IMG/VR virus record: IMGVR_UViG_3300020043_002188
Span: 1 to 38,476 of that record
Origin: a virus
Lineage: Duplodnaviria > Caudoviricetes
DNA: 38,476 bases
Reading direction: 5' to 3' (one strand)
The position numbers and the translations under genes were made by a program. Below are positions 1,388 to 37,209 of this stretch, one piece after another. The notes beneath the pieces were generated by a model. That model was not told where the DNA came from, did no database searches, and saw only the letters and a list, made by a program, of their open reading frames with translations. How positions within the stretch are numbered: the stretch's first letter is position 1; each line of letters starts with the position of its first letter.

Positions 1388-1590
1388 TAGGTGGTCTTTG
1401 CGCGGATGGCCTGATCTACACGTTTTGCAAGACCACGGTCAGCGCCAAGAAGTGCGATTCCCGCCCTGTACGCACACGCTTCACGCTCGGCAGCAATCTC
1501 ATGCTGCATGTACTCCAGCGTCACCGTACCGTACTGTGTAGGCTGGTTCTCTGGATCGATAAATAGCTGCAACACGCCACGATCAATCAT
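1387..1590 (-). CDS. Hypothetical protein, 67 aa
   Basis: Stop/start overlaps on both sides; contains an AAEREACA motif that I recall from small phage proteins. Confidence 0.7.
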   Translation of the reverse strand: MIDRGVLQLFIDPENQPTQYGTVTLEYMQHEIAAEREACAYRAGIALLGADRGLAKRVDQAIRAKTT

Positions 1591-2153
1591 CAGTCGTTCT
1601 CCAGTCTTGAGGTTACGTCAATCACCTCACCCTCGATCACCCGGGCTTGGGCCTGCGCCAGCGCCTCAGTGATGGAGATGGTGCCGCCGAGTTCAACTTG
1701 TTTGATCTCGCCGTAGCGTTTCTTGTTGTGTGCGCTCATGAGCCACTTGCGCGTGTCGATGCGCAGCTTGTCCCTGTTCACCGTGTCGTTCGAGTTGGCG
1801 TCGATCGCCTCGACCCCATCCGCAATTTCCAGAATCTCCCCGGCAAGAAACTCAGTGCGCATCTCCTGCGCTTCCTTGAACCGTTCATGGCGGGTGGCAT
1901 CCCGCTTGACCCAGCGCAGGAAGTCCTCATACGAGATGGCCCTGTGGTCATCCTCAATCAGCGATTGCAGGGACCGGCCACGGTAGATGTCTTCCACGAC
2001 TCTCTCGAAGATTTGCTCATATTCGACATGCAGCAACGCCCTTGCCTCCTTCGAGGTTCTGAGGGGTTCTGGGTCAGGCACGGACAGCCAGTTGGGCAGT
2101 TGATTCTCACTGGCGACAGCCGTGCCTACAAACGAGGTGTTCTCTTGTTTCAT
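1590..2153 (-). CDS. terS: Terminase small subunit (Sf6 gp1-like)
   Basis: N-terminal HTH-like segment (GRSLQSLI...FLRWV) and motif KLRIDTRKWLMSAHNKKRYGE typical of Sf6-type TerS; upstream of terL. Confidence 0.88.
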   Translation of the reverse strand: MKQENTSFVGTAVASENQLPNWLSVPDPEPLRTSKEARALLHVEYEQIFERVVEDIYRGRSLQSLIEDDHRAISYEDFLRWVKRDATRHERFKEAQEMRTEFLAGEILEIADGVEAIDANSNDTVNRDKLRIDTRKWLMSAHNKKRYGEIKQVELGGTISITEALAQAQARVIEGEVIDVTSRLEND

Positions 2154-2239: not shown

Positions 2240-2783
2240 TGATACCGCCCGGCCAACAGCCCACCTCGCTCCGGCCCTCACCCGCCCCCATCGAACCGCT
2301 GGCACGATTTATGCTTTGCGCCGCGCCGCCGCGCCGCGGACCGATCGCCCAGCGCCGCCGCATCACCGCGCCGCCCAGGATATCGCAGCCCAGCGGGTCC
2401 AGATTATCCGCGGATCCTGGCGCTAATCGATCACCCAGGATAATCGGATCCCCTGGGTTTACGGGTCCAGGGACTGGATCACCCAGCGGGTTAAAGGAAC
2501 CCAGGGGATCTAGGGAAATCCTGGCGACTGGATCACCCAGCGGGTTAAAACGGGGGTTTTGGGGGCGATTGTGACAAGTCGCCCTTTCGCGCAGGCAAGG
2601 CGAAAGAATATAACTTTTTCCACTGGGTCATTTAATCTGAAAATCCCGAAACCTTACCCCAGCGATAAAAGGAACAATTGTCACCACCCCCAAAAAGAAC
2701 CCCTGAAGCATCACCCAGCGGGTTAGGGTTTATCCTGATGCAAATATTTTGTCGTACCTGTTGACAATCTAACCCGCTGGGTT
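2195..2783. promoter_or_regulatory. Array of pseudo-palindromic ACCC-N3-GGGT(T) sites, putative operators
   Basis: Sites at 2195-2207, 2388-2398 (GCCC variant), 2481-2492, 2535-2546, 2713-2724 and 2771-2783. Includes a perfect 24-bp direct repeat at 2472-2495 and 2526-2549. Confidence 0.65.
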
Positions 2784-2788
2784 ATAAT
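2761..2788 (+). promoter_or_regulatory. Consensus sigma70 early promoter
   Basis: TTGACA (2761-2766), 16-bp spacer, TATAAT (2783-2788); AT-rich upstream; about 65 bp before the first early gene. Confidence 0.85.
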
Positions 2789-2852
2789 TACATCACCGGA
2801 ACAAATCCGGCACACTGTAACCCGTAACCTGTAACCCCGAAAGGACCTGATC

Positions 2853-3041
2853 ATGAACAAATCCGAAACCCGCGAAGTCGCCAAGATCGCCCAATACCAC
2901 GCCGCAGGCCTGGGCGCTGATTTTGTCGCCCGCGCTCTGTCTTCCCTGATCCGCGCCGCCCGTACAAATAAGAGCGCCGCCGCGCTGCAGGATATCGCCG
3001 CTGATTTTGGCGTCACCGATCACCCTGAATTCATTTGCTGA
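2853..3041 (+). CDS. Early hypothetical protein, 62 aa (first gene after the promoter)
   Basis: GAAAGGA RBS within the leader repeat; no family recognised. Confidence 0.8.
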   Translation: MNKSETREVAKIAQYHAAGLGADFVARALSSLIRAARTNKSAAALQDIAADFGVTDHPEFIC

Positions 3042-3050
3042 TCTAACCCA

Positions 3051-3067
3051 GGGGGCGCGAAGCCCCC
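3051..3067 (+). other. Intergenic GC hairpin without a U-tract
   Basis: GGGGGC-GCGAA-GCCCCC between early genes 1 and 2. Confidence 0.5.
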
Positions 3068-3101
3068 GCCCTGTAACCCGTAACCCTGAAAGAACCTGAT
3101 C

Positions 3102-3242
3102 ATGAATAAGCACCAATTGACGTACATCGATATGTACCCCGCCCCTGTCGATCGTGAACCGTCCGCCCTGGCGATCTGGGCAGGCGCTGCCCTGGCGCTG
3201 ATCGCCCTGTACCTGATCACCCTGTTTTTGTTCACCCTGTAA
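3102..3242 (+). CDS. Small membrane protein, 46 aa (not in ORF track)
   Basis: MNKHQLTYIDMYPAPVDREPSALAIWAGAALALIALYLITLFLFTL; starts at the ATG of one 38-bp repeat and stops inside the next; C-terminal hydrophobic helix. Confidence 0.8.
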   Translation: MNKHQLTYIDMYPAPVDREPSALAIWAGAALALIALYLITLFLFTL

Positions 3243-3267
3243 CCCGTAACCCTGAAAGAACCTGATC

Positions 3268-3576
3268 ATGAAAACTGAAAACCCCGTTATCCTGTCCGCC
3301 CTTGTCGATCGCCTTGCTGCGATCAAAGCCCAATTGGCGGATCTGTCCGCGGAAGAGAAAACCCTGAAGGGTGAATTGATCGCTGCGGATCTGCCCACGA
3401 TCGAAGGAACCGCGCACCGTGTCGCTGTTTCGTTCTGCCCTGGACGTGAAACGATCGATTGGCAAGCTGTCGCCGCTAAATTTAACCCGTCCCGCCAATT
3501 GATAACCGCGCACACTGCCCAGGGCGCGCCGTTTCATACTGTCCGCGTGTCCGCCAGGAAAGGGGTGAAATCATGA
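3268..3576 (+). CDS. Early protein with N-terminal coiled coil, 102 aa
   Basis: Starts at the repeat ATG; heptad segment LVDRLAAIKAQLADLSAEEKTLKGEL. Confidence 0.85.
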   Translation: MKTENPVILSALVDRLAAIKAQLADLSAEEKTLKGELIAADLPTIEGTAHRVAVSFCPGRETIDWQAVAAKFNPSRQLITAHTAQGAPFHTVRVSARKGVKS

Positions 3577-3806
3577 TCGACGCTAAATTTATGCGGGATC
3601 ACTTTACCCTGGTGACGATCACCGATAACCCCGCGCCTGCTGGGGTCCGCCTGGATCCTGAAGACCTGCGGGAAATCCTGGACGCCGTTAAATCTGGCGC
3701 TGCCCGCCTGCGGGGTCCGCGCTGCGAGTTTTCCGATAAACGCGCCGCCGCGTCACTGACTTTCGCCGCCGCCCTGATCACTGAAGCCCTTGAAAGGACC
3801 GAATAA
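3573..3806 (+). CDS. Early hypothetical protein, 77 aa
   Basis: ATGA overlap with the previous gene; GGGGTG RBS. Confidence 0.8.
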   Translation: MIDAKFMRDHFTLVTITDNPAPAGVRLDPEDLREILDAVKSGAARLRGPRCEFSDKRAAASLTFAAALITEALERTE

Positions 3807-4489
3807 TGCCCGCCTATCATTTTGTCGCCGTGTCTGCTAATCGTAAAACCGGAAAAATCCCCGTCACTTATTCTGAGCGGGACACCTGCCCGCCGTCCTG
3901 CCCGCATTATCGGGCGGACTGTTACGCGGAAGATTATTACACCCGGATGACCTGGGACAAGGTTCCCGCCCGCGGGGGATCCCTGGCGGATCTGTGCGCA
4001 TCGATCGCCGCCCTGCCCGCTGGGTCCCTGTGGCGTCACAATGTAGCGGGCGATCTGCCCGGATCTGGGGAAGACCTGGACCCCGCCGCCCTGGGCGATA
4101 TCGTCCGCGCCAATATTGGGCGGAAGGGTTTCACGTACACCCACAAAAAAACCGCTGACGCCCTGTACTGGGCAGGGCAGGCGACAAGCTGGGGTTTCAC
4201 CGTGAACCTGTCCGCGGATGACGCGGGCGAAGCTGACGCCCTGGCGGACGTGTCTGATTGTCCGATCACCTGTATTGTCCCGATCGATACCCCGCCCAAA
4301 ACCTATACACCGGACGGGCGCGTGATCATTGTCTGCCCTGCCCAGGTCCGGGACGATATCACCTGTCAATCCTGCGGACTGTGTGCGATCGCTGATCGCG
4401 CCGTGATCATTGGGTTTCGCGCACACGGAACCCGCGCCGCGGTTACTGACGCGAAAGCCCGCCGCGTGATCCCGATCGTGAAAGGATGA
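3806..4489 (+). CDS. Cys-rich radical-SAM-like phage protein (Gp88/DUF7227-like)
   Basis: Motifs NRKTG, TCPPSCPHYRADCYA (Cx3Cx6C), RHNVAGD, FTYTH, VNLSAD, CPAQ...TCQSCGLC and IGFRAHG; family assigned from recall. Confidence 0.7.
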   Translation: MPAYHFVAVSANRKTGKIPVTYSERDTCPPSCPHYRADCYAEDYYTRMTWDKVPARGGSLADLCASIAALPAGSLWRHNVAGDLPGSGEDLDPAALGDIVRANIGRKGFTYTHKKTADALYWAGQATSWGFTVNLSADDAGEADALADVSDCPITCIVPIDTPPKTYTPDGRVIIVCPAQVRDDITCQSCGLCAIADRAVIIGFRAHGTRAAVTDAKARRVIPIVKG

Positions 4490-4493
4490 AATC

Positions 4494-4838
4494 ATGCCCA
4501 AAAAATTGATCTTTAACATGATCCGGGCTAATGACGTCCGCGAAGCTGTCCAGTATTACCCGATCGTTTTTCTGCGGGGGTCCAGGTCCTGGCGGTTAGC
4601 CTTGCACCGTGAACCCGTCCTGGCGGGAAAGGGTGATTGGATTGTTTCGGACCCTGTGGGCGGTCACCGGGTTTGCCGGGTCACCGCGTCATTTAAAGGG
4701 GTCCCCGTATCGTCCAGGGACCTGCCCGTAAATCATGCCCGCGCCGCTGCCCTTATCGATCTGGATCTGACTGTTGACCGTATCGGCCTGGATCGTTTCG
4801 CCGCCGTCCTGGACGCCGCCCAAAACCCGAAACCCTGA
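4494..4838 (+). CDS. Early hypothetical protein, 114 aa
   Basis: Flanked by the 21-bp direct repeats, which carry an AAGGA RBS. Confidence 0.8.
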   Translation: MPKKLIFNMIRANDVREAVQYYPIVFLRGSRSWRLALHREPVLAGKGDWIVSDPVGGHRVCRVTASFKGVPVSSRDLPVNHARAAALIDLDLTVDRIGLDRFAAVLDAAQNPKP

Positions 4839-4850
4839 AAGGATGAAATC

Positions 4851-5054
4851 ATGCCCCTGGATCTAATGAAGCTGCCCGCCCCTGAAGCTGAAGCCCTGGC
4901 TTATGCTGAAGGGTTCACAAATACCGCGCACCTGTTCGCCAGGATCGCGGATCTACAAAAAGCCCTGGGCGAAGCCGTGAACGAAATCGAACAATTGAAA
5001 ACGGATCTTTACGCCGCCCAGTATGAGCGGGCATATCCCCGGGGGGATGAATGA
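4851..5054 (+). CDS. Early hypothetical coiled-coil protein, 67 aa
   Basis: Starts at the repeat ATG; segment IADLQKALGEAVNEIEQLKTDL. Confidence 0.8.
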   Translation: MPLDLMKLPAPEAEALAYAEGFTNTAHLFARIADLQKALGEAVNEIEQLKTDLYAAQYERAYPRGDE

Positions 5055-5137
5055 TCACTTTTTCGATTGTCGTTTCACTCATTTTCGCCGCCGTCCGCGC
5101 CTTGCTGCTGCTGATCGCGTCACTTATCAAGCCGTAA
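5051..5137 (+). CDS. Hydrophobic 28-aa peptide (not in ORF track)
   Basis: MITFSIVVSLIFAAVRALLLLIASLIKP; ATGA overlap with the previous stop; ends just before the terminator. Confidence 0.55.
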   Translation: MITFSIVVSLIFAAVRALLLLIASLIKP

Positions 5138-5148
5138 CCCGAACCCGT

Positions 5149-5176
5149 CCCCCAGGTGATCCCTGGGGGCTTTTTT
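5149..5176 (+). terminator. Rho-independent terminator of the early transcript
   Basis: CCCCCAGG-TGATC-CCTGGGGG-C-TTTTTT. Confidence 0.85.
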
Positions 5177-5196
5177 GACCCTGAAAGAATCCGATC

Positions 5197-5493
5197 ATGA
5201 ACGATACACCCGCCCCCGCCGCCCTGCCCAGCTTCGCCCAGGATCTGGGGGCGCTGATCACCCGCCGCGGACTGGATGAACCCCGCGCCGCGGGTCTGCT
5301 GGGGGTTCCTGTCTTCACCCTGCGGAAGTGGATCGCCGGGACCCGCGCACCGTCCGCCGCCGCCGTCCGCCTGCTGGACGTCCTGGGAACCCTGGACGCG
5401 ATCGCCCCCGCGCTGCTGGACGCGCTGACGCCCGCCGCCGCGCCCGCCGCCCCCAAGCGGCCCCGGGGACGACCAAGTGTCAAAATAGACTAA
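5197..5493 (+). CDS. XRE/Cro-like HTH regulator with C-terminal AT-hook
   Basis: RRGLDEPRAAGLLGVPVFTLRKWIAGTRAPS fits an XRE HTH; the tail contains KRPRGRP. Confidence 0.8.
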   Translation: MNDTPAPAALPSFAQDLGALITRRGLDEPRAAGLLGVPVFTLRKWIAGTRAPSAAAVRLLDVLGTLDAIAPALLDALTPAAAPAAPKRPRGRPSVKID

Positions 5494-5605
5494 GGCTCCC
5501 AACTAACCATCGGGCCTTTGGTTTTAAGGCATCGAACTAACCGTCAAGCCCTTGGTTTTAAGGCTCCCAACCAGCCGTCAAGACCACTTTTTAAGGAATC
5601 GAACC
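5491..5605 (+). repeat. Imperfect tandem repeat, about 3.4 copies of 34 bp
   Basis: Units start at 5491, 5525, 5559 and 5592 (TAAGGC[TCCC/ATCG]AACTAACCGTCAAGCCCTTGGTTT); the last partial unit supplies the RBS of the 5606 gene. Confidence 0.85.
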
Positions 5606-5957: not shown

Positions 5958-8456
5958 TCATTCGTCCATGTCCGGGGTGTACCCCTTGACCAGCTTACGA
6001 TCGTACCCCTTGGCCGTGGCGTGGCGGTAGATGTAGTCAGCGTGGCGCTGCTTGGCCTTGATGACCGTCTGCCGGTAATCCTTGAACATCTCAGGCAGCG
6101 TGGGGTTGATGGCCCATGTGACCTTTTTCTTGTGCAGTTCACTCTCGATCTGCACCGCCCAGCCAGCCTGCTCGATGACCAGCATGGCGTCCATAATCGC
6201 CTGATCCTTCTGCCAGTCGGTCTTGCCCTCCAGTGGCCTGCGGGCCGACCGTTTGAGGCTGCGCAGGTCAATGGTGTGCACCTCGCCGCTGATCTGCACA
6301 ATGTAGTCAATTACCCACTGATCAAACGTGTCGGTGATGACCCCGCCCACCTCGCCCAAGGCGTAGCGGTAGGCCGGGATGATGTACCCGCGCACCAGAC
6401 TGACCACCCTGTGGACAACATCGACTGACACCACGGGGTTGAAGGGCGACTCGATGACGTGGAACATGAGAATCAGACGGCCAGCTAAACCTTCCAACTT
6501 GCCGAAAGCCGTCATGTACTCTGTGCCGCTGTCCAGCACCCGCTCGTCCTGCTTAGCCGACTCATACCACTGCTGGAATTCCCTGAAGGCTGTGTACGCT
6601 TCTGTGGATAACTGGTACGTCTGCACGGGCAGCGCGTAGGTCAGGCGCAGGGTGTTCTCCCATGCCCCGGCGCTGCTCATGTAGTCGGGGATGGGCTGGC
6701 CCAGCTTGGTCTTGCTTCCGCGCAAGATAGCGGGGATGAACCGTTGCAACAGGCCGTCAGCCGACAGCGCGGCCAAATTGGCCTTGAACACTTGGGGCTG
6801 GATGTTGCCGTAGATTGACACAGCAAGGTTCTCGGCATAAATCGACCCAGCGCCCACTCGGTCCATCTCGTAGTGTTCTGACTCGTAACTGACAACCCAC
6901 GCTGACCGGTCCTCGCCGCTGCTCTTGTCTGTCAGCTTGCGCACCCAACTGTTCATCTCATCGAGGTAGCACAGCAGGCCACGGGGCCGGTCTGCCGCTT
7001 GGCGCACCAGCTTCTGACTGGTGATGTCGCTGACTGTGATTTTGAGCGGCACCGGCTGCGTTGACAAGTCGGGCACAAGCGGTGCCTGATCGCCGCCCAG
7101 CATGGCCTCGGTCGACGATGACCACTCTAGGAATGCCTTCTTGGCGCTGGCGTGTTGGGCCTCTTTGCCCTCCCAGTCGAGCAGTTCCTTGCCGTAGCGG
7201 GGCCGGTCCTCGGCCTCGATGTTCTTCAATGGCGACAGCATGGGCCGCGATCCGGGTGACTTCTTGTCCGCTGGGTCGCCCAAAGTCATGAGCCACAGCA
7301 CCGGGGGCACCTTGAACCCCGGCATGAGTTCCAGCCGTGTGCGGGCGTCAATCACCCCGCAGACAGCGGCCAACCCAGCGAACAAAGGGACCAAAGGGTC
7401 ACAGCCCACGCTTTCTGAAATCTCAGTGGATCGGGTCTTGAGGATGCTGGGCCACAGGGACAGGTCCATCTCGGGTGGCTTGGGCCGCAGGCCGTCCATC
7501 ACGCTCAATGGCTCCATCACGGGGATGTCGATCTTGCTGAACAACTCGGACGCATCGGGCATGGGTCGCTGCCACCCGTGCTGCTTGGCAATATGGAACA
7601 GTGTCCCCAACTTGACAGCGGTGGCCTTGTCAGTCTTGAAGCTGATCCACTGCGTCAGAATCTCACGCTCACCGGGGTACTTTGTCTGTGCGGTAGCACT
7701 CCATTCGTTCCACAGTGCCAGCGCCTGCTCAAGCTGATCGGTCTGAGTGCCCGCCCAGTGCAGTGCCATGCCGATGTTCACCCACTCGTCGCGGGTGCAG
7801 TCGGCAGGTACAGCATCAAGGGCTTGCCTGATCTCTTCCCACGAGGCGTCAACCGTGCCGTCTGTGGCGATGGTGCGTTCTTTGTCCTGCGCCAGCATCC
7901 CACTCCACAGGTCCAGCAGGGCTTGGGGGATGACGGGCATCCGGGTCCAGTGGCCGTGGCCCGCCCAGTGGTAGGGCTGGCGTGTCTCGGGGTGGATTGA
8001 CGGGGGCAGCACGTCTTGCACCGTGAGGCCGCTGACCGTGGCGCAGCGCAACTCGTAGGCCGTGATGCCACTGTGCATGATCTTCTTTGAGGGCAGCGCC
8101 GCGCCGAAGGGCATTGCGTACAGCAGCTTGCCGTGCCCGGGCTTGCCCGAGTTGATCACCACGGCATCAGGCGCATCGTATAGGGCTTGCAGGTCGATGC
8201 CGTGCTCGGCCAGCAGACTGGTGGTCACGGTCCAGTTGTCGATGTCAAGGGCCATCGTGCCGCTGTACGCATGGGCCAAGCCGATGCCGTAGCCTTGCGG
8301 CAGATCGCCTTGGGCCTTGAGGGCGTTCTGTTTGAGGTTCCAACCCGGGGTGCGCGGCCCCTTGGTGTTGGCTGGGATGGGGACAAGTGACCAGCCGTGT
8401 CTGATGTAGGCATCAACAGACGCTGGATGTGATTGCACAGTCTGTGGTGCTGTCAT
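5958..8456 (-). CDS. Bifunctional primase-polymerase with PriCT-2 and DUF3987 (YfjI-like) helicase-like domain, 832 aa
   Basis: Prim-pol N-terminus (YIRHGWSLVPI...KGP...ALDID...VLPPSIHP); PriCT-2 (RDEWVNIGMALH...WNEWS...KY); DUF3987 motifs (PPVLWLMTLGDPADKKSP, LDEM, DGLLQRF). Likely start is MTAPQ at 8456. Confidence 0.88.
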   Translation of the reverse strand: MTAPQTVQSHPASVDAYIRHGWSLVPIPANTKGPRTPGWNLKQNALKAQGDLPQGYGIGLAHAYSGTMALDIDNWTVTTSLLAEHGIDLQALYDAPDAVVINSGKPGHGKLLYAMPFGAALPSKKIMHSGITAYELRCATVSGLTVQDVLPPSIHPETRQPYHWAGHGHWTRMPVIPQALLDLWSGMLAQDKERTIATDGTVDASWEEIRQALDAVPADCTRDEWVNIGMALHWAGTQTDQLEQALALWNEWSATAQTKYPGEREILTQWISFKTDKATAVKLGTLFHIAKQHGWQRPMPDASELFSKIDIPVMEPLSVMDGLRPKPPEMDLSLWPSILKTRSTEISESVGCDPLVPLFAGLAAVCGVIDARTRLELMPGFKVPPVLWLMTLGDPADKKSPGSRPMLSPLKNIEAEDRPRYGKELLDWEGKEAQHASAKKAFLEWSSSTEAMLGGDQAPLVPDLSTQPVPLKITVSDITSQKLVRQAADRPRGLLCYLDEMNSWVRKLTDKSSGEDRSAWVVSYESEHYEMDRVGAGSIYAENLAVSIYGNIQPQVFKANLAALSADGLLQRFIPAILRGSKTKLGQPIPDYMSSAGAWENTLRLTYALPVQTYQLSTEAYTAFREFQQWYESAKQDERVLDSGTEYMTAFGKLEGLAGRLILMFHVIESPFNPVVSVDVVHRVVSLVRGYIIPAYRYALGEVGGVITDTFDQWVIDYIVQISGEVHTIDLRSLKRSARRPLEGKTDWQKDQAIMDAMLVIEQAGWAVQIESELHKKKVTWAINPTLPEMFKDYRQTVIKAKQRHADYIYRHATAKGYDRKLVKGYTPDMDE

Positions 8457-8500
8457 AGAATAATCCCGTTGGTGATTGCAGTTGCCGACACTTTGTTCAT
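8453..8500 (-). CDS. 15-aa leader ORF coupled to the primase start
   Basis: AAGGAG-7nt-ATG, MNKVSATAITNGIIL; its TGA overlaps the primase ATG (ATGA). Confidence 0.5.
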   Translation of the reverse strand: MNKVSATAITNGIIL

Positions 8501-8514
8501 TGAGCTTCTCCTTC

Positions 8515-8548
8515 AAAGCCTCGGTCTAACCACCGGGGCTTTTTCTTT
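8515..8548. terminator. Stem-loop in the divergent control region
   Basis: AAAGCCTCGGT-CTAACC-ACCGGGGCTTT followed by TTCTTTT on the plus strand. Confidence 0.55.
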
Positions 8549-11706: not shown

Positions 11707-13560
11707 ATGAGTAACGACTATGTATTCGACATCGAAACCTATCCCAACGTGTTCACGCTGGCAGTGGAACACGCAGAAGCACCTCTGCACTGGATGTTCG
11801 AGATCAGTGACCTACGCAACGACAGTCGTCAGATCGTTGAGTTCCTCCAGTTCCTCAAGGAAACCGACTCACGCATGGTCGGCTTTAACAACTTGGGGTT
11901 CGATTACCCTGTGATCCACACCCTGATCCGCATGGGTCAAAGTGATGCCAACACGCTGTATCAAAAGGCGATGGCAATCATCAACGCACAGGATGAAGAT
12001 GGTGGCCGCTGGATGCACTCGGTCAAGCCCTCGGACCAGTTCGTCGCACAGATCGACCTGTTCAAGATTCACCACTTCGACAACCGCGCCCGCGCCACCA
12101 GCCTCAAGGTGCTGGAGTTCAACATGCGCAGCGACAGCATTGAAGACCTGCCGTTCCCGGTGGGCACCGTGCTGACCCGTGACCAGATCGAAGTGCTCAA
12201 GCAGTACAACAAGCACGATGTGGCGCAGACCAAGGCGTTCTACTACCACACGCTTGACATGATCCACTTCCGTGAAGAGCTGACGCGCAAATACGCCCGG
12301 GACTTTATGAACCACAACGACACCAAGATCGGCAAAGACTACTTCACCATGAAGTTGGAAGAAGCCGGTGTCGCTTGCTACGACTTCGGCCCGAATGGCC
12401 GCACACCCCGGCAGACCAAGCGCCCAGTGATCCACCTCAAAGACGCCATCCTGCCGTGGATCAACTTCGAGCATCCTGAATTTAACCGGGTAATGAACTG
12501 GCTCAAGGCTCAGACCATCACCGAAACCAAAGGGGTCTTCACGGACCTCACAGCAACCGTCGATGGCTTCACTTTTGTTTTTGGATTAGGAGGCATTCAT
12601 GGCTCAATGGAATCGGTTGTGGTCGAATCCGATGACGAGAACGTCATCATTGATTTGGACGTTACCAGCTACTACCCAAACCTTGCAATCACGAACGGCT
12701 TCCATCCGGCCCACTTGGGTAAAGAGTTTGTCAGCATCTACAAGCACCTGTTCGAGCAGCGCAAGCAGTACCCCAAGAAGTCCGCAGAAAGTGCGATGCT
12801 GAAGCTGGCGCTGAACGGCGTCTACGGTGACAGCAACAACCAGTTCTCGATCTTCTACGACCCGCTGTTCACCATGTCGATCACGCTCAACGGCCAACTG
12901 CTGCTGTGCTTGCTGGCCGAGGGGTTGATGCACATCCCCGGGCTGCGCCTGATCCAAGTGAACACGGACGGCTTGACAGTGCGTGTGCCCCGGGCCAACA
13001 AGATGCTGGTCGATCTGGCCCGCGCTGCATGGCAGACGCGCACCGGGTTGAACCTTGAAGAAGCCGTCTACAAGGCCATGATGATCCGCGATGTCAACTC
13101 GTACATCGGCGTGTTTGAAGACGGCAGCACCAAGCGCAAGGGTGCCTATGAGTACAAGGTCGGCTGGCACCAAAACGCTGGTGGACTGGTGGTGCCCAAG
13201 GTGGCCGAAAAGGTGCTGGTTGACGGTGCACCGATCCGCGAGACAGTCGAGCAGTGGCCTGAGATTATGGACTTCATGCTTCGCACCAAAGTGCCCCGCA
13301 GCAGCCACCTCGCTATTGAGTGGGACGGTCAGCAGCCCCAGAAGTTGCAGAACATAACCCGTTATATAATAACCAAAAACGGTGGGCGATTGTTCAAATG
13401 GATGCCCCCTCTCAAGGGCAAGACCGAGTGGCGCAAGATCGGTGTCGAAAGCGGCTGGGGTGTTCAACCATGCAACAACATTCGTGACGCAGATGGTGTC
13501 GAGATCGACTACGACTATTACATCCGCGAAGTGGAAAAACTCGTACTGGGGCTTGTTTGA
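11707..13560 (+). CDS. DNA polymerase, family B, with 3'-5' exonuclease domain, 617 aa
   Basis: ExoI FDIETY, ExoII GFNNLGFD, ExoIII YNKHDV; motif A DLDVTSYYPN, motif B KLALNGVYG, motif C QVNTDG. Confidence 0.92.
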   Translation: MSNDYVFDIETYPNVFTLAVEHAEAPLHWMFEISDLRNDSRQIVEFLQFLKETDSRMVGFNNLGFDYPVIHTLIRMGQSDANTLYQKAMAIINAQDEDGGRWMHSVKPSDQFVAQIDLFKIHHFDNRARATSLKVLEFNMRSDSIEDLPFPVGTVLTRDQIEVLKQYNKHDVAQTKAFYYHTLDMIHFREELTRKYARDFMNHNDTKIGKDYFTMKLEEAGVACYDFGPNGRTPRQTKRPVIHLKDAILPWINFEHPEFNRVMNWLKAQTITETKGVFTDLTATVDGFTFVFGLGGIHGSMESVVVESDDENVIIDLDVTSYYPNLAITNGFHPAHLGKEFVSIYKHLFEQRKQYPKKSAESAMLKLALNGVYGDSNNQFSIFYDPLFTMSITLNGQLLLCLLAEGLMHIPGLRLIQVNTDGLTVRVPRANKMLVDLARAAWQTRTGLNLEEAVYKAMMIRDVNSYIGVFEDGSTKRKGAYEYKVGWHQNAGGLVVPKVAEKVLVDGAPIRETVEQWPEIMDFMLRTKVPRSSHLAIEWDGQQPQKLQNITRYIITKNGGRLFKWMPPLKGKTEWRKIGVESGWGVQPCNNIRDADGVEIDYDYYIREVEKLVLGLV

Positions 13561-13561
13561 T

Positions 13562-14074
13562 ATGTGGAAAGACGTACTTGATTTTGAAGGCTATGAGGTG
13601 TCGTGTGACGGCAGTGTTCGGTCATGGTTACCGGAACGAAACAACGCACCATCTCCGGCACAACCACGGCTATTGAAGTTCATTGTTACGCCCGGTGGAT
13701 ACCGGCAAGTGAACCTGTACGCAAACGGAAAGCGACGAGTGGTGCGGATTTCGGTGCTTGTTGCCGAAACTTTTCATGGTCCGCGCCCTGCGAATGCCGT
13801 GTTGCGACACTTGAACGGGAATCGTCAAGACGACAGAGCCGTGAATCTTAAGTGGGGCACCACGCAAGAAAACAATGACGACATGCGACGACACGGAACA
13901 TGGGCGCATGGTGAACCCATCCACACATCCAAATTGACTGAGCAGGACGTGCAGCACATTCTGCAAAGTGATGAACGAGGTGTTGATCTTGCGAAACGAT
14001 ACGGCGTTACGCCGGGAAACATTTGCCACATTCGCAAAGGGCGAAGCTGGAATCACATTGAGAGGACACAATGA
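13562..14074 (+). CDS. NUMOD4-HNH homing endonuclease, 170 aa
   Basis: MWKDVLDFEGYEVSCDGSVRS (NUMOD4), RHLNGNRQDDRAVNLKWGT (HNH) and a C-terminal HTH. Confidence 0.9.
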   Translation: MWKDVLDFEGYEVSCDGSVRSWLPERNNAPSPAQPRLLKFIVTPGGYRQVNLYANGKRRVVRISVLVAETFHGPRPANAVLRHLNGNRQDDRAVNLKWGTTQENNDDMRRHGTWAHGEPIHTSKLTEQDVQHILQSDERGVDLAKRYGVTPGNICHIRKGRSWNHIERTQ

Positions 14075-33782: not shown

Positions 33783-35967
33783 TCATCTCTCCTTGGGGTG
33801 CCATCATCTCAGGCTGCATTTGTGGTTCTTCCATCTCGGGCATTTCGCGCTGTTGGTTCATGATCATGTTGTCGTTGCTCTCCAGCGCAGCAGCCACGAC
33901 ACCCATAGCGATGTCTTGAATCTGCTGCTCACTCATGCCAGCCTGCACGGCGCTGATACGCTGTGTCTCGGCCTGATATGCCTTGATGTCAGCCTCAAAC
34001 TGCTTGATCTCCAGATCACGGGCTTCCATGCTCTTGTTGACGTTTTGGAGCATGTTGAACATGTTCTCCATTTCAGCGGCCATCGCCTCCATCTGCTGGT
34101 TGGCAGCGGCCAAGGCTGGATCGTCTTCGTCGGCCAGCACTTTGGGGTCGATGGTCTTCTTGAACCGCTTGGCGAGGTCTTGGGCACCGGGCCAGTCCAT
34201 GTTCTTGACGAACAGGTCACCAGCAACTTGCCACAACTGTGGGTTGCCTTGCAGCAACTGGGCCATGCTCTCCAAGGCTTCCTGACGCTTGGTAGCGTAG
34301 CCGGGGCCGGTGATCACGCGCACATCGTACTTGCCGACAGCGGGGTTGTAGATTTTCTCGATCAGCACACCCTCTTGGTCCACGATCCGCTTGACGGGTT
34401 CCTCTTGCATCGGGTTCATTTTGACGGTCGATGGCTCACCATCTTCGCCAATGATGCGAGCAATGCGCTCGGTGTCGTAAATCTTGGGGATCAGGTCCAC
34501 GAGTTGACGGCCAATGTGACGAATCGCACGGGCCAAGTTGTCAACGTAGTGGTAGGTGCCGATGTCGCCTTCGCGCTGGCGGGCCAAGATGGCTTTGCCG
34601 GAACGCTCGTTGCTGGTCATGCCCAGCGATGCGTTGTACTGACCGGTGGCCGACTTGATGTCCTCGGCAGCGCCTGCCTTGGCTTGCAGGAGGCCGCTGG
34701 AGGCCATCGGAGGCTGTGCCCGCTGGGGTAGTGGCAACACAGCGCCTTGACCGTCTGTAACGTCAGGATTGACCTCCAGATAGGGCCAGTTGTTCGTGTT
34801 GGCAGTCTTCCACTGCTGCTCGTAGCCTTCAAACTGCCCGCCGTACCCGATGAACGGGGCTTTGGGGGCCAGCGCCAGCATCTCAGCTTCCTGCGATACC
34901 CAGTAGTTGTACATGCGCTGGGCATCCTTGGCGTTGCGCACCAAGCCCGACACGTACATCTGGCCGTCCACCTCGAACTCGTTGCCGACCACGCGCACCA
35001 CAGGAATGTAGGCACCAGCCCACTCGCGTTCTTCGAGGATGTCGTAACCGTTGATCTTGCACCACTTGACCTTTTTGCGGTCAGCTTCGCGGCTGCGGAT
35101 CGGCTTGCCAAACATCATGCGCAGGGTCTTGTCCTCGGGCGTACCGCTGAACGCAGTCTGGTTGCCGGGGTACAGATTGAGCGTTTGCTTCTCGTACTCG
35201 ATGTAGAAGTACTCGGCGATGCGGATGGTGTTCTCACCAATCCACTGGGCGATGGACTGATCGCCCACGCCAAGGCTCATGAGGGTGCTGATTGGTGCTG
35301 CATCGGGATACATACGCTCGTATTCAGCTTTGGGCAGGTCTTCCGTCACAAAGCACCACTTGGCGTCTGCGCCCGTGGGGTCTTGGATCAGGGGGTCCAT
35401 GTAGACGCTGAAGCTGTTGCGGATGCGCCCGATCTTGATGTCCTGATCGAACGTGTCTTCGTCGCAGTACTCGGTCAGCAGTCGGATGTAGCCTTCGCCG
35501 TAGGACACTTGGTTCTCGCAGGCGGTGTCGTAGGCCACGTCAGCATCGGAGATGTACTCGATGTGGCGAATCACGCCGTTGAACACCTCGGCCACGTCCA
35601 CGTCAGCCTCGTCGTCAGCCGGGATCACTTTGATGCCGGGACGGTTCATGCGCTGCTCGTTTGTCACTTGATGAACGTGCTGCGGCAGCTTGTTGATGGT
35701 CAGGCAGGGGCGGGCGTTGATGGTTTGACCCTGCACGGCACCACGAGTCTGGAGCACGTCAGCAGGCCACTGCCACTGGTTGTCTGGGGAGCCTGCGTAA
35801 AACCGCAGGTCATCGAGTTCGTCTTCCCGAGTTTGGGAAAACGCCGTCATGGCCGTGTTCATGCGTGAACGGGCAACGGTCAAAATTTCCTCGGAACCGC
35901 CTTTTGACGGGTACGGTCCGTTTTTTGCCACATTGGCTGCGGCTACGATTCCGGTGGTGTCTTTCAT
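33769..35967 (-). CDS. Portal protein (P22 gp1-like), 732 aa
   Basis: [36 protein letters not shown] and GKYDV...[10 protein letters not shown] motifs. Confidence 0.93.
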
Positions 35968-36518
35968 TGAAATCGATTCCCTTTGCTCATGTTTTCAACG
36001 GCAGGTATCACTTGCAGGTTCCAAGGAACGTGCAAACCTGACACCGATTTTCCCCGCAAAGGGACAATATGGTCAACATGATAGTCCAAGCCAGCGGAAC
36101 GGAGTGCCGCACAGTATGCGTAAACCGTGTCGAATTCTAGTCGATCTGCGGAAGTAAGCCAATTTGGCATCCGCAAGTCTTTGGCGGCGCGGCGGCGCGT
36201 TGCCGATTCAGCCACCTTGCTCAGATTGGAGCGTTTCCAGTTTTTGGTCGATTGTCGGACCTTTTCGGGGTTGCTTTCCGACCATTTTGTGCGAATAGCT
36301 GAAACCTTGTCTGGGTTTTTCTGCCGCCATTTGTTGACGTGCTTCAAGTGATCCGCTGAGTGATCAGCGTACCATTTTTTAAAAGCATTGTCGGCGCAGA
36401 CACAACAGCCGTAATTCGTAACCTGTCGTTCGGCAACATGTCCATGCTTGCAAGGCGTGTTTGTGAAATAGCGCGGCAAACCCTGCGCCATTGCTTCAGA
36501 CCGGCTGATTACTTTCAT
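35964..36518 (-). CDS. HNH homing endonuclease, 184 aa
   Basis: [11 protein letters not shown]...CCVC N-terminus and [32 protein letters not shown]. Confidence 0.9.
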
Positions 36519-36763
36519 GCGTCAAATACACCAAGCGTGTGCGATTCCCTCATGACAAGCAGGTTATCGCCTTCCCACTTCAAATCCTGACCGATGGAAT
36601 CACCAAATAGCACCTTGTCGCCGACTTTCACGTCTTTGGCGTCTGGGCCAGCGGAGATTACCACACCTGTGCCCGTTTGTTTTTGCTTCAGAAGGATGAA
36701 AAGCTCGTGTTTCTCCATGTCTGGGCGCACGATCAGGCAGTCTTGCAGGGCTTGGAGGCTCAT
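36515..36763 (-). CDS. groES: GroES-like co-chaperonin
   Basis: [11 protein letters not shown]...GVVISAGP...VKVGDKVLF...[11 protein letters not shown] follows the Cpn10 pattern. Confidence 0.85.
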
Positions 36764-37209
36764 TTTTCGGGGTCCATTGGAAGTTTAGTTGCAGTTACGA
36801 TGCGCAGGCCAAGATGCTCAGTGGCCCTTTGCCAGCAGCAGGTGTAAACCCGGCAACCAGCAAAAAGAGCCTGCACGGTCGCCAGTGGCACGGGTTGACC
36901 GGCTTCGGAAGCCAGTGCAACGACTTGCTCGGGGTGGCCGGTGCTGTCAGTCGGGCGCGGGCCGGTGCGGTCTTCTTCCGGCGTTGCGTCCCAAATCTCT
37001 GCATCGTGCAGTGGCAGCAGATCAGCGAACGCGCCCCAGATTGACCCCGCGCTGATGTAGTGTGTGGGTGGTCTGCCGCTGTCGGGTGACAGCTCTGTTA
37101 CCCACATGCCCGTGCCTGATTCACCAGGAGCGGCAGCGACTGCAAGCGCCCGGGCCAGGGGCACAAAAGCTGCGGGCACGATCATGACGCGGTGTTGCCA
37201 GTCGTTCAT
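36760..37209 (-). CDS. Hypothetical protein, 149 aa (possible partner of the upstream fibre)
   Basis: ATGA overlaps on both sides; LSPDSGRPPTHYISAG motif. Confidence 0.65.
   Translation of the reverse strand: MNDWQHRVMIVPAAFVPLARALAVAAAPGESGTGMWVTELSPDSGRPPTHYISAGSIWGAFADLLPLHDAEIWDATPEEDRTGPRPTDSTGHPEQVVALASEAGQPVPLATVQALFAGCRVYTCCWQRATEHLGLRIVTATKLPMDPEK

Follow-up and report, generated by a model that had tools for sequence, protein, structure and literature searches.

An early-gene cassette written in a reduced set of words that differs between close relatives of an uncultured podovirus

Avoidance of restriction sites in the DNA that enters the cell early has been described for a small number of elements. 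In the accessible part of PMC12455610, the early-injected region of Murciavirus (Autographiviridae) lacks the type I Mme2I motif, as established by experiment with one host, and early-region avoidance is also cited there for T5 and for plasmid leading regions. A genome-wide survey reports, in the portion available, no avoidance of type I or type IIG sites, little for type III, and avoidance of type II sites only (PMC6286503), and the available part of a preprint on MANTIS states that asymmetric sites are not uniformly avoided (10.64898/2026.09.23.753747). We describe here an early-gene cassette in the virus record IMGVR_UViG_3300020043_002188 (Duplodnaviria; Caudoviricetes), of which the whole stretch of 38,476 nucleotides is referred to as the window. 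The cassette (positions 2280-5495, plus strand), which a first-pass annotation had called the leader, is the block lying between the terminase small subunit gene (terS) and a repeat array ahead of the primase gene, and makes up 8% of the genome, the remainder of which we call the body. It is written in a shrunken set of words, and that set differs between close relatives as would dialects. Early-region site avoidance is known for one type I motif (PMC12455610, in its accessible part), and what we describe here is a reduction of vocabulary across a whole cassette, with dialects; a literature search, with subscription papers and bioRxiv supplements outside its reach, found no description of either.

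The loss of GAG and CTC drew attention to this region. We find exactly the seven copies that had been reported between 2280 and 5495 (at 2935, 2972, 3355, 3726, 3875, 5025, and 5078; five GAG and two CTC on the top strand), with CTC present just before the cassette (2265, 2269, and 2277) and again at 5496, also as reported. The expectation of roughly 100 given earlier is too high, a fair figure being 74-80, and seven copies against the 74.5 expected from the remaining genome corresponds to a Poisson P of about 1e-23. The loss is sharply confined, in that the lowest 3216-nt stretch downstream of the cassette still has 51 copies, and it is spread through the cassette, with zero to two copies in each gene. 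Both flanks have body vocabulary, terS to the left (1590-2153, minus strand; 28 GAG/CTC in 564 nt) and the primase-polymerase/helicase gene to the right (5958-8516, minus strand). The earlier counts of three GGCC and two CAAC/GTTG in the cassette are correct, and CCAT is nearly absent too. Glutamate is mostly encoded by GAA (27 GAA and four GAG), but codon usage is not the cause: the bias spans both strands, GAG and CTC are scarce in each of the three reading frames, and none occurs in 735 nt of non-coding DNA, in line with the first-pass annotation. Synonymous recoding with the codon usage of the body gives 65.9+/-6.6 GAG/CTC, and permuting the cassette's own codons gives 38.7+/-4.3 (300 draws, minimum 27), so that the recoding nulls and the non-coding spacers together rule codon usage out. 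Ribosome-binding sites are affected as well, with GGAG or GAGG at none of nine cassette genes versus 13 of 31 body genes.

The reduction extends to the vocabulary as a whole. The cassette has 1028 distinct 6-mers, compared with 1316+/-16 under codon permutation and 1280-1442 in ten body windows of equal length, and 79 5-mers that are present in the body are missing from it. Among 5-mers that contain A or T and have an expectation of at least three, 54 of 386 are absent where 2.3 would be by Poisson, while none of the 15 pure-GC words is absent.

To place the cassette among its relatives we took the best 80 of 261 and the best 80 of 269 hits from two IMG/VR scans (160 loci), added the lake phage DSL-LC05 and the window, and kept loci in which terS and a helix-turn-helix (HTH) gene lie 1.5-6 kb apart; with near-duplicates dropped this left 76 cassettes, which an arbitrary cut of their 4-mer profiles divides into 19 groups. 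A comparison with the body was made for 64 of the 76, the other 12 having no sufficiently long flank. Fewer distinct 6-mers than in the body are seen in 55 of these 64 cassettes. Six words (AGATG, ACGAG, ACAGC, AGGAG, AGAAG, and GGAGT) are more than twofold down in 15-18 of the 19 groups, and a 30-word set derived from the other 18 groups is found 90 times in the window cassette versus 231 expected. With the 76 cassettes pooled, words of this set number about 80 per kb outside the cassette and about 25 per kb within it, the drop lying just upstream of terS and the recovery following the HTH gene.

The dialects differ most plainly in GAG itself. Its density, counted with CTC, ranges from 2.2 to 41.9 per kb in the 76 cassettes and from 18 to 36 per kb in bodies (59 with more than 4 kb of flank), the window cassette being the most extreme; sister cassettes retain 4-10 GAG per kb. 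The rate is under half that of the body in 27 of 76 cassettes and equals or exceeds it in five. The cassette with 41.9 per kb (L020:3420-5329, minus strand) sits on a body with a 96% identical terS, and is rich in GAAT and GGAG and poor in CAG. Five dialects occur within a close clade of 22 phages (terS at least 90% identical), the terminase DNA of the five-dialect phages being 92-95% identical; terL DNA is up to 95.6% identical across dialects, and the terL sequences nearest to that of the window belong to phages of another dialect. Cassettes have therefore likely been exchanged between bodies. The dialect pervades individual genes, as seen with that encoding a DUF7227 protein, in which leucine is encoded by 55 CTG and no CTC in the window's group versus 19 and 22 in the DSL-LC05 group (group 1). 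In all 52 cassettes compared, the 6-mers of DUF7227 recur more in the rest of their own cassette than in other dialects (0.68 versus 0.54; body control 0.61 versus 0.59). The loss of GAG is thus the dialect of this lineage only, and the phenomenon itself is real, strong, and conserved.

These comparisons bear on a narrow explanation, namely that one agent reads GAG, whether as a protospacer-adjacent motif (PAM) of a clustered regularly interspaced short palindromic repeats (CRISPR) system, a target of a DNA-modifying toxin, or the core shared by a single family of enzymes. No trimer is more depleted in the window cassette than GAG/CTC, which on average ranks second across groups, and this favors such an agent. 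However, GAG-rich dialects on near-identical bodies weaken this explanation, and close relatives favor GAG, with 97 GAG and 18 GAA for glutamate in the group 1 DUF7227 genes. AGG is a PAM of type I-E systems and is enriched in the cassette (116 versus 76), on which ground a set of PAMs was rejected as the cause. TNTC, a target of DarT, is not depleted (98 versus 74), and the toxin reading of the first-pass annotation is accordingly not supported for targets of this type. We give a GAG reader very little credence. Avoidance of asymmetric sites of the N6-methyladenine (m6A) type in an early leader, proposed at the same time, does fit; it is GAG as their shared core that the GAG-rich relatives contradict. 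The signature was not found in the distant relatives Rhodoferax phage P26218, Vibrio phage 36E38.1, Xanthomonas phage PBR31, and MW202483, and there is accordingly no cultured model among them. MW202483 has an annotated C5 DNA methyltransferase at the position equivalent to the cassette (L209:30041-31018).

The synonymous sites of the cassette are under constraint. Relative to the three closest sisters, 4-fold sites differ at 0.11-0.14 in the cassette versus 0.18-0.23 in the body, even though the proteins differ more in the cassette, and only seven of 152 differences create a GAG or CTC, compared with 14.9% of possible changes; when the comparison is widened to seven sisters, this is true of 31 of 316 distinct alleles. 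Across dialects the relation is reversed, with 4-fold sites differing at 0.57-0.62 in cassettes and 0.18-0.32 in bodies. The shared lost words are low on both strands (pooled AGATG 52 and CATCT 40, versus 358 each), and this symmetry suggests that double-stranded DNA is what gets read. A process without defense selection could also be considered, in which local mutation, template switching, or gene conversion homogenizes words, or in which cassettes derive from phages of other hosts. Abundant short repeats, the palindrome excess described below, and the sharing of words throughout a cassette are also expected from local copying, but synonymous sites diverge less rather than more and shun changes that create GAG, most dialects agree in the asymmetric words that they have lost, and there is no unusual RNA folding (no excess in ten 150-nt windows; mean z -0.4 versus -0.7 in the body). 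We regard these possibilities as quite unlikely.

A signal of opposite sign was overlooked in the first reading. The cassette contains 38 of the 40 CCWGG sites in the genome and 61 GATC, versus 22.9+/-2.6 and 43.5+/-3.2 under codon permutation, and CCGCGG and CGATCG are also abundant; the body has two CCWGG where 82 are expected. Six-base palindromes occur at 21 per kb in the cassette and 5.1 per kb in the body, and in 63 of 64 cassettes their density exceeds that of the body. The palindrome and word-loss signals flip at the same two edges, one just upstream of terS and the other where the HTH gene ends. Avoidance of palindromes, the targets of orthodox type II enzymes, is thus a property of the body and not of the cassette. 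One reading is that CCWGG and GATC are positively selected, with Dcm- and Dam-like methylation from the previous host masking overlapping restriction sites, and both the excess over the codon-permutation null and the near-absence of CCWGG from the body are in its favor. However, the number of CCWGG equals its own 4-mer expectation (38 versus 34.8), other dialects have neither CCWGG nor GATC, and scans of 57 and 30 window open reading frames (ORFs) against PHROGs and Pfam gave no methyltransferase match. CCWGG is all-or-none, with no copy in 26 of 76 cassettes and at least 15 in 24, and its rates in cassette and body correlate across phages (rho 0.67, n = 59), which is what a restriction target that some lineages stopped avoiding would give. 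We consider methylation masking improbable. Positive selection for CCWGG as such was rejected as unnecessary, and since the count matches its 4-mer expectation and tracks the rate in the body, no separate cause is needed. CCA is followed by G in 70% of cases in the cassette and GAT by C in 64%, and CCWGG and GATC would pile up as the options left over after CCA and GA. Decay of body CCWGG by deamination was also rejected, the product words being hardly elevated (CCAAG 144 versus 126).

We propose that the cassette enters the cell before the other phage DNA and has been selected against many asymmetric m6A restriction systems, with extra copies of a site already carried being cheap, such that each lineage has come to use few words; we think this a reasonably likely account. 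Host defenses that recognize asymmetric sites and methylate adenine (type III, IIG, type I, and those like bacteriophage exclusion, BREX) would be active for as long as no cassette protein has blocked them. A single copy of a site would suffice for attack, so that further copies of the same site may cost little, and each lineage would purge most words and reuse a few. GAG may have disappeared here as the union of many lost 5- and 6-mers. For the body, the only remaining threat would be palindrome cutters that need no cofactor, and it would purge palindromes instead, and cassettes, likely swapped among bodies, could serve as host-range passports.

Known restriction motifs give a mixed picture of this proposal. 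We used Table S4 of Blow 2016 (PMC4752239; parts 1-2 of 10, together with rows matched by word), within which every one of the eight rows containing AGGAG, ACGAG, GGAGT, or AGAAG lists a type III or IIG m6A motif; 18 betaproteobacterial motifs were taken from the part of the table covered, with three further Polaromonas rows excluded. Each of the eight type I motifs among these 18 is reduced (none in the window cassette versus 3.5; 100 versus 289 pooled), and their pooled count is also below the 224 expected from independent halves, with control pairs dropping to 0.54-0.85 as well. Type III and IIG motifs show an all-or-none pattern instead of depletion: CCCAGG has no copy in 41 of 76 cassettes yet is 2.8-fold up in the pool, and the window cassette carries 15 CCCAGG, a listed type III motif, and seven CGCCCAG, a IIG motif. 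More generally, zero counts over 70 cassettes amount to 8.4% versus 3.3% by Poisson (3.0% versus 2.3% in bodies). Such an all-or-none pattern is what a diminishing cost per extra site would be expected to give. The loss from one strand only that characterizes T7 and the type III enzyme EcoP15I is not seen among the top shared words, although a few weaker words are strand-skewed (e.g. AGCAG/CTGCT, 82/298). A literature search for Limnohabitans motifs found none.

The layout of the left end would fit a genome end upstream of terS with an inward promoter, and five of 80 contigs anchored at terS end 108-140 nt upstream of it; we consider the cassette likely to be the first DNA to enter. In four lake or unlabelled metagenomes, summed contig depth was mostly lower over the cassette than over terS, but such depth cannot rank regions and was not used to locate termini or a long terminal repeat. 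The portal, coat, head-closure, and ejection proteins are P22-like by PHROGs and Pfam, and P22-like phages are headful packagers.

Several observations weigh against our proposal. Headful packagers are predicted not to show early-region site avoidance (PMC12455610, in its accessible part), and the structural genes of the window resemble those of such phages; the contig ends clustered upstream of terS, one of them in a low-complexity tail, may reflect branching in assembly. Some palindromes are found in the cassette and never in the body (CCGCGG 8/0, GATATC 4/0, and GGATCC 4/0), which our proposal accommodates only through the swapping of cassettes. In the rows available from PMC4752239 the control is weak, six depleted 5-mers hitting eight rows and six enriched ones hitting four, and the top lost word, AGATG/CATCT, hits none. 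Bipartite pairs chosen arbitrarily are reduced as well (medians 0.44-0.65; reversed controls 0.53-0.64), and type I is for that reason not singled out, while pooled type III and IIG motifs (853 versus 715 and 276 versus 159, respectively) are not depleted. The 76 cassettes are related and not independent, nine of the 64 compared have no compression of vocabulary, and the sister comparisons share common ancestry and are blurred by recombination. No recognized anti-restriction gene was found in the window cassette with PHROGs, Pfam, or PADLOC (13 proteins scanned with the last). The genome-bin hits do not converge on one host: 13 of the 44 are betaproteobacterial and the others scattered, as is expected of mis-binned phage contigs.

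An alternative is a reader of short words. This could be a nuclease, a modifier, or a DNA-binding shut-off factor, possibly phage-encoded, that is active while only the cassette is inside the cell, the cassette sparing the words of its own factor. The near-loss of a trinucleotide is extreme for enzymes with 5-7-bp sites, compression is stronger in cassettes that bear DUF7227 (median 898 distinct 6-mers in 52 cassettes versus 978 in the 24 without), and the bias passes a terminator up to the repeat array. On the other hand, the constraint is soft, as the GAG retained by sisters indicates, no ORF family with at least two members is restricted to GAG-poor groups, and losses are common to dialects whatever their gene content. 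We regard such a reader as unlikely.

The DUF7227 protein (3806-4489, plus strand; 227 aa, GP88-related, Pfam E 2e-71) is a candidate for the counter-defense function that our proposal of selection by m6A systems calls for. Its structure model (predicted local distance difference test, pLDDT, 96) is predicted to contain a partial barrel weakly resembling radical S-adenosylmethionine (SAM) enzymes: these make up the six best matches, including QueE (Z 6.5, root-mean-square deviation 5.1, 165 aligned) and viperin (Z 6.1), all with Z below 8, and a Foldseek search of the model against the PDB gave no match at E 0.001. The canonical cysteine spacing of radical-SAM clusters is CX3CX2C, and DUF7227 departs from it, with C28, C32, and C39 (CX3CX6C) invariant in 90 sequences. 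Homologues occur in 185 phage records, of which 166 are Pseudomonas phages including PAK_P1, and a literature search tied no function to GP88. Twenty-four of the 76 cassettes have no DUF7227, and in one such cassette there is a GP88-family gene (L006:6222-6875, minus strand), suggesting that the two are interchangeable. A sister cassette with a 97% identical terS carries an ArdC-type anti-restriction gene (L002:3326-4087, minus strand; 89 representative ORFs scanned). Type I and III enzymes need SAM and orthodox type II enzymes do not (PMC6286503, portion available), and BREX is blocked by SAM depletion (10.1101/2024.04.12.589305, accessible part); an early enzyme that consumes SAM would thus explain why the body purges palindromes only. 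In a more tentative version, evasion is blind to specificity: the first-entering cassette would minimize the number of different words it exposes, dialects would be interchangeable passports that pass among near-identical genomes, each against a random subset of enzymes, and DUF7227 would drain SAM, so that type I, III, IIG, and BREX systems would be disarmed by the time the remaining genome is exposed to them. We see this as possible but doubtful.

The cassette contains nine small co-oriented ORFs behind a sigma-70 promoter. The promoter (2761-2788, plus strand) matches the consensus at 12 of 12 positions with a 16-nt spacer and points into the cassette. To its left is an element upstream of terS (2196-2290) with an operator-like repeat, an A/T tract, and a C-run, which is alike among the 16 relatives displayed and may be a packaging site or genome end. 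An 11-nt near-palindrome is present five times (2196, 2481, 2535, 2713, and 2772; span 2196-2782), once within the promoter spacer, and these copies are likely operators for the HTH protein of the cassette. On the plus strand follow g1 (2853-3041, 62 aa), g2 (3102-3242, 46 aa, with a hydrophobic C-terminus and frequent in related cassettes), g3 (3268-3576, 102 aa), g4 (3573-3806, 77 aa), DUF7227, g6 (4494-4838, 114 aa), g7 (4851-5054, 67 aa, from the biggest ORF family across related cassettes), and g8 (5051-5137, a hydrophobic peptide of 28 aa). The products of g1, g4, and g6 have no family match, and g3 belongs to a viral family with no Pfam match, an Atlas search with it returning only viral clusters without names. 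A hairpin resembling an intrinsic terminator (5149-5169, plus strand) precedes the HTH gene (5197-5493, plus strand; 98 aa; Pfam HTH_31 E 0.002, under the curated cut-off), which is the final gene in dialect. A 38-nt gene-start motif is repeated five times on the plus strand (2820, 3069, 3235, 4818, and 5164; span 2820-5201). The right edge is formed by three 34-nt direct repeats (5491-5592, plus strand), a candidate entry-pause signal, origin, or recombination junction. This 102-nt array has a BLAST match in 27 of 76 cassettes, the window included, and can be 100% identical in phages of unlike dialect, lying just after the HTH gene in L013, L003, and L031; other groups have a second, unrelated type of repeat at this position. 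The word bias runs on beyond the hairpin and stops where the tandem repeats lie, which suggests a unit defined as a segment of DNA rather than as a transcript.

The last bases of the window repeat its first, indicating that the genome is complete, was assembled as a circle, and measures about 38.36 kb. By PHROGs and Pfam it is a podovirus with a primase-polymerase, a DNA polymerase, and a helicase, and the scans described above gave no integrase match; the closest named record is DSL-LC05 (OR003940). The only two CCWGG outside the cassette are in an ORF of 149 aa (36760-37209) with 62% GC and no known family, possibly a recent arrival. The phage also encodes a GroES co-chaperonin upstream of the portal region (36515-36763) and two HNH or endonuclease VII-like genes that are likely mobile (13382-14074 and 35964-36518). 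Structured RNA was rejected as a cause of the word bias, since the cassette has no folding excess and the single weak Rfam match lies elsewhere in the genome (E 0.031, 21.5 bits versus a cut-off of 229).

These observations suggest that avoidance of type I, IIG, and most type III sites, denied by whole-genome surveys, is present but hidden in 8% of the genome, where it appears as a vocabulary cut down in more than one alternative way. If so, cassette dialects would predict strain-level host range in an abundant group of uncultured lake phages, and shared missing 5-mers would predict the methyltransferase motifs of their hosts. DUF7227, with thousands of relatives, would be a candidate counter-defense enzyme, for which PAK_P1 offers a cultured test system.

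The comparison with known systems can now be drawn more closely. Like the first-step-transfer DNA of T5 and the early region of T7, the cassette has a strong promoter for the host polymerase, small genes, repeated gene starts, and a sharp inner edge, here at a repeat array. The T5 region is known for missing a palindromic type II site (EcoRI), whereas cassettes of this type are richer in palindromes than their bodies, and in contrast to T7 with its Ocr protein, no Ocr-like protein was recognized in the cassette. T3 SAM lyase would be a functional analogue of DUF7227, QueE and viperin being weak structural likenesses. DSL-LC05 has the same genome plan, with a capsid 96% and a primase 93% identical and homologous cassette genes, but its cassette has 24 GAG/CTC per kb, no CCWGG, and little CAG/CTG. 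As in the phages surveyed in the available portion of PMC6286503, the body purges type II palindromes; the loss of asymmetric words within 8% of the genome sets this phage apart from them. The closest parallel is with Murciavirus, which likewise has a variable early cassette and avoids an asymmetric m6A site in only part of its genome while tolerating it elsewhere. There, however, one motif is avoided, while here a whole vocabulary is reduced and the dialects of relatives exclude one another. Palindrome avoidance, moreover, has become looser and not stricter, and the virion is P22-like with fixed ends that are only presumed.

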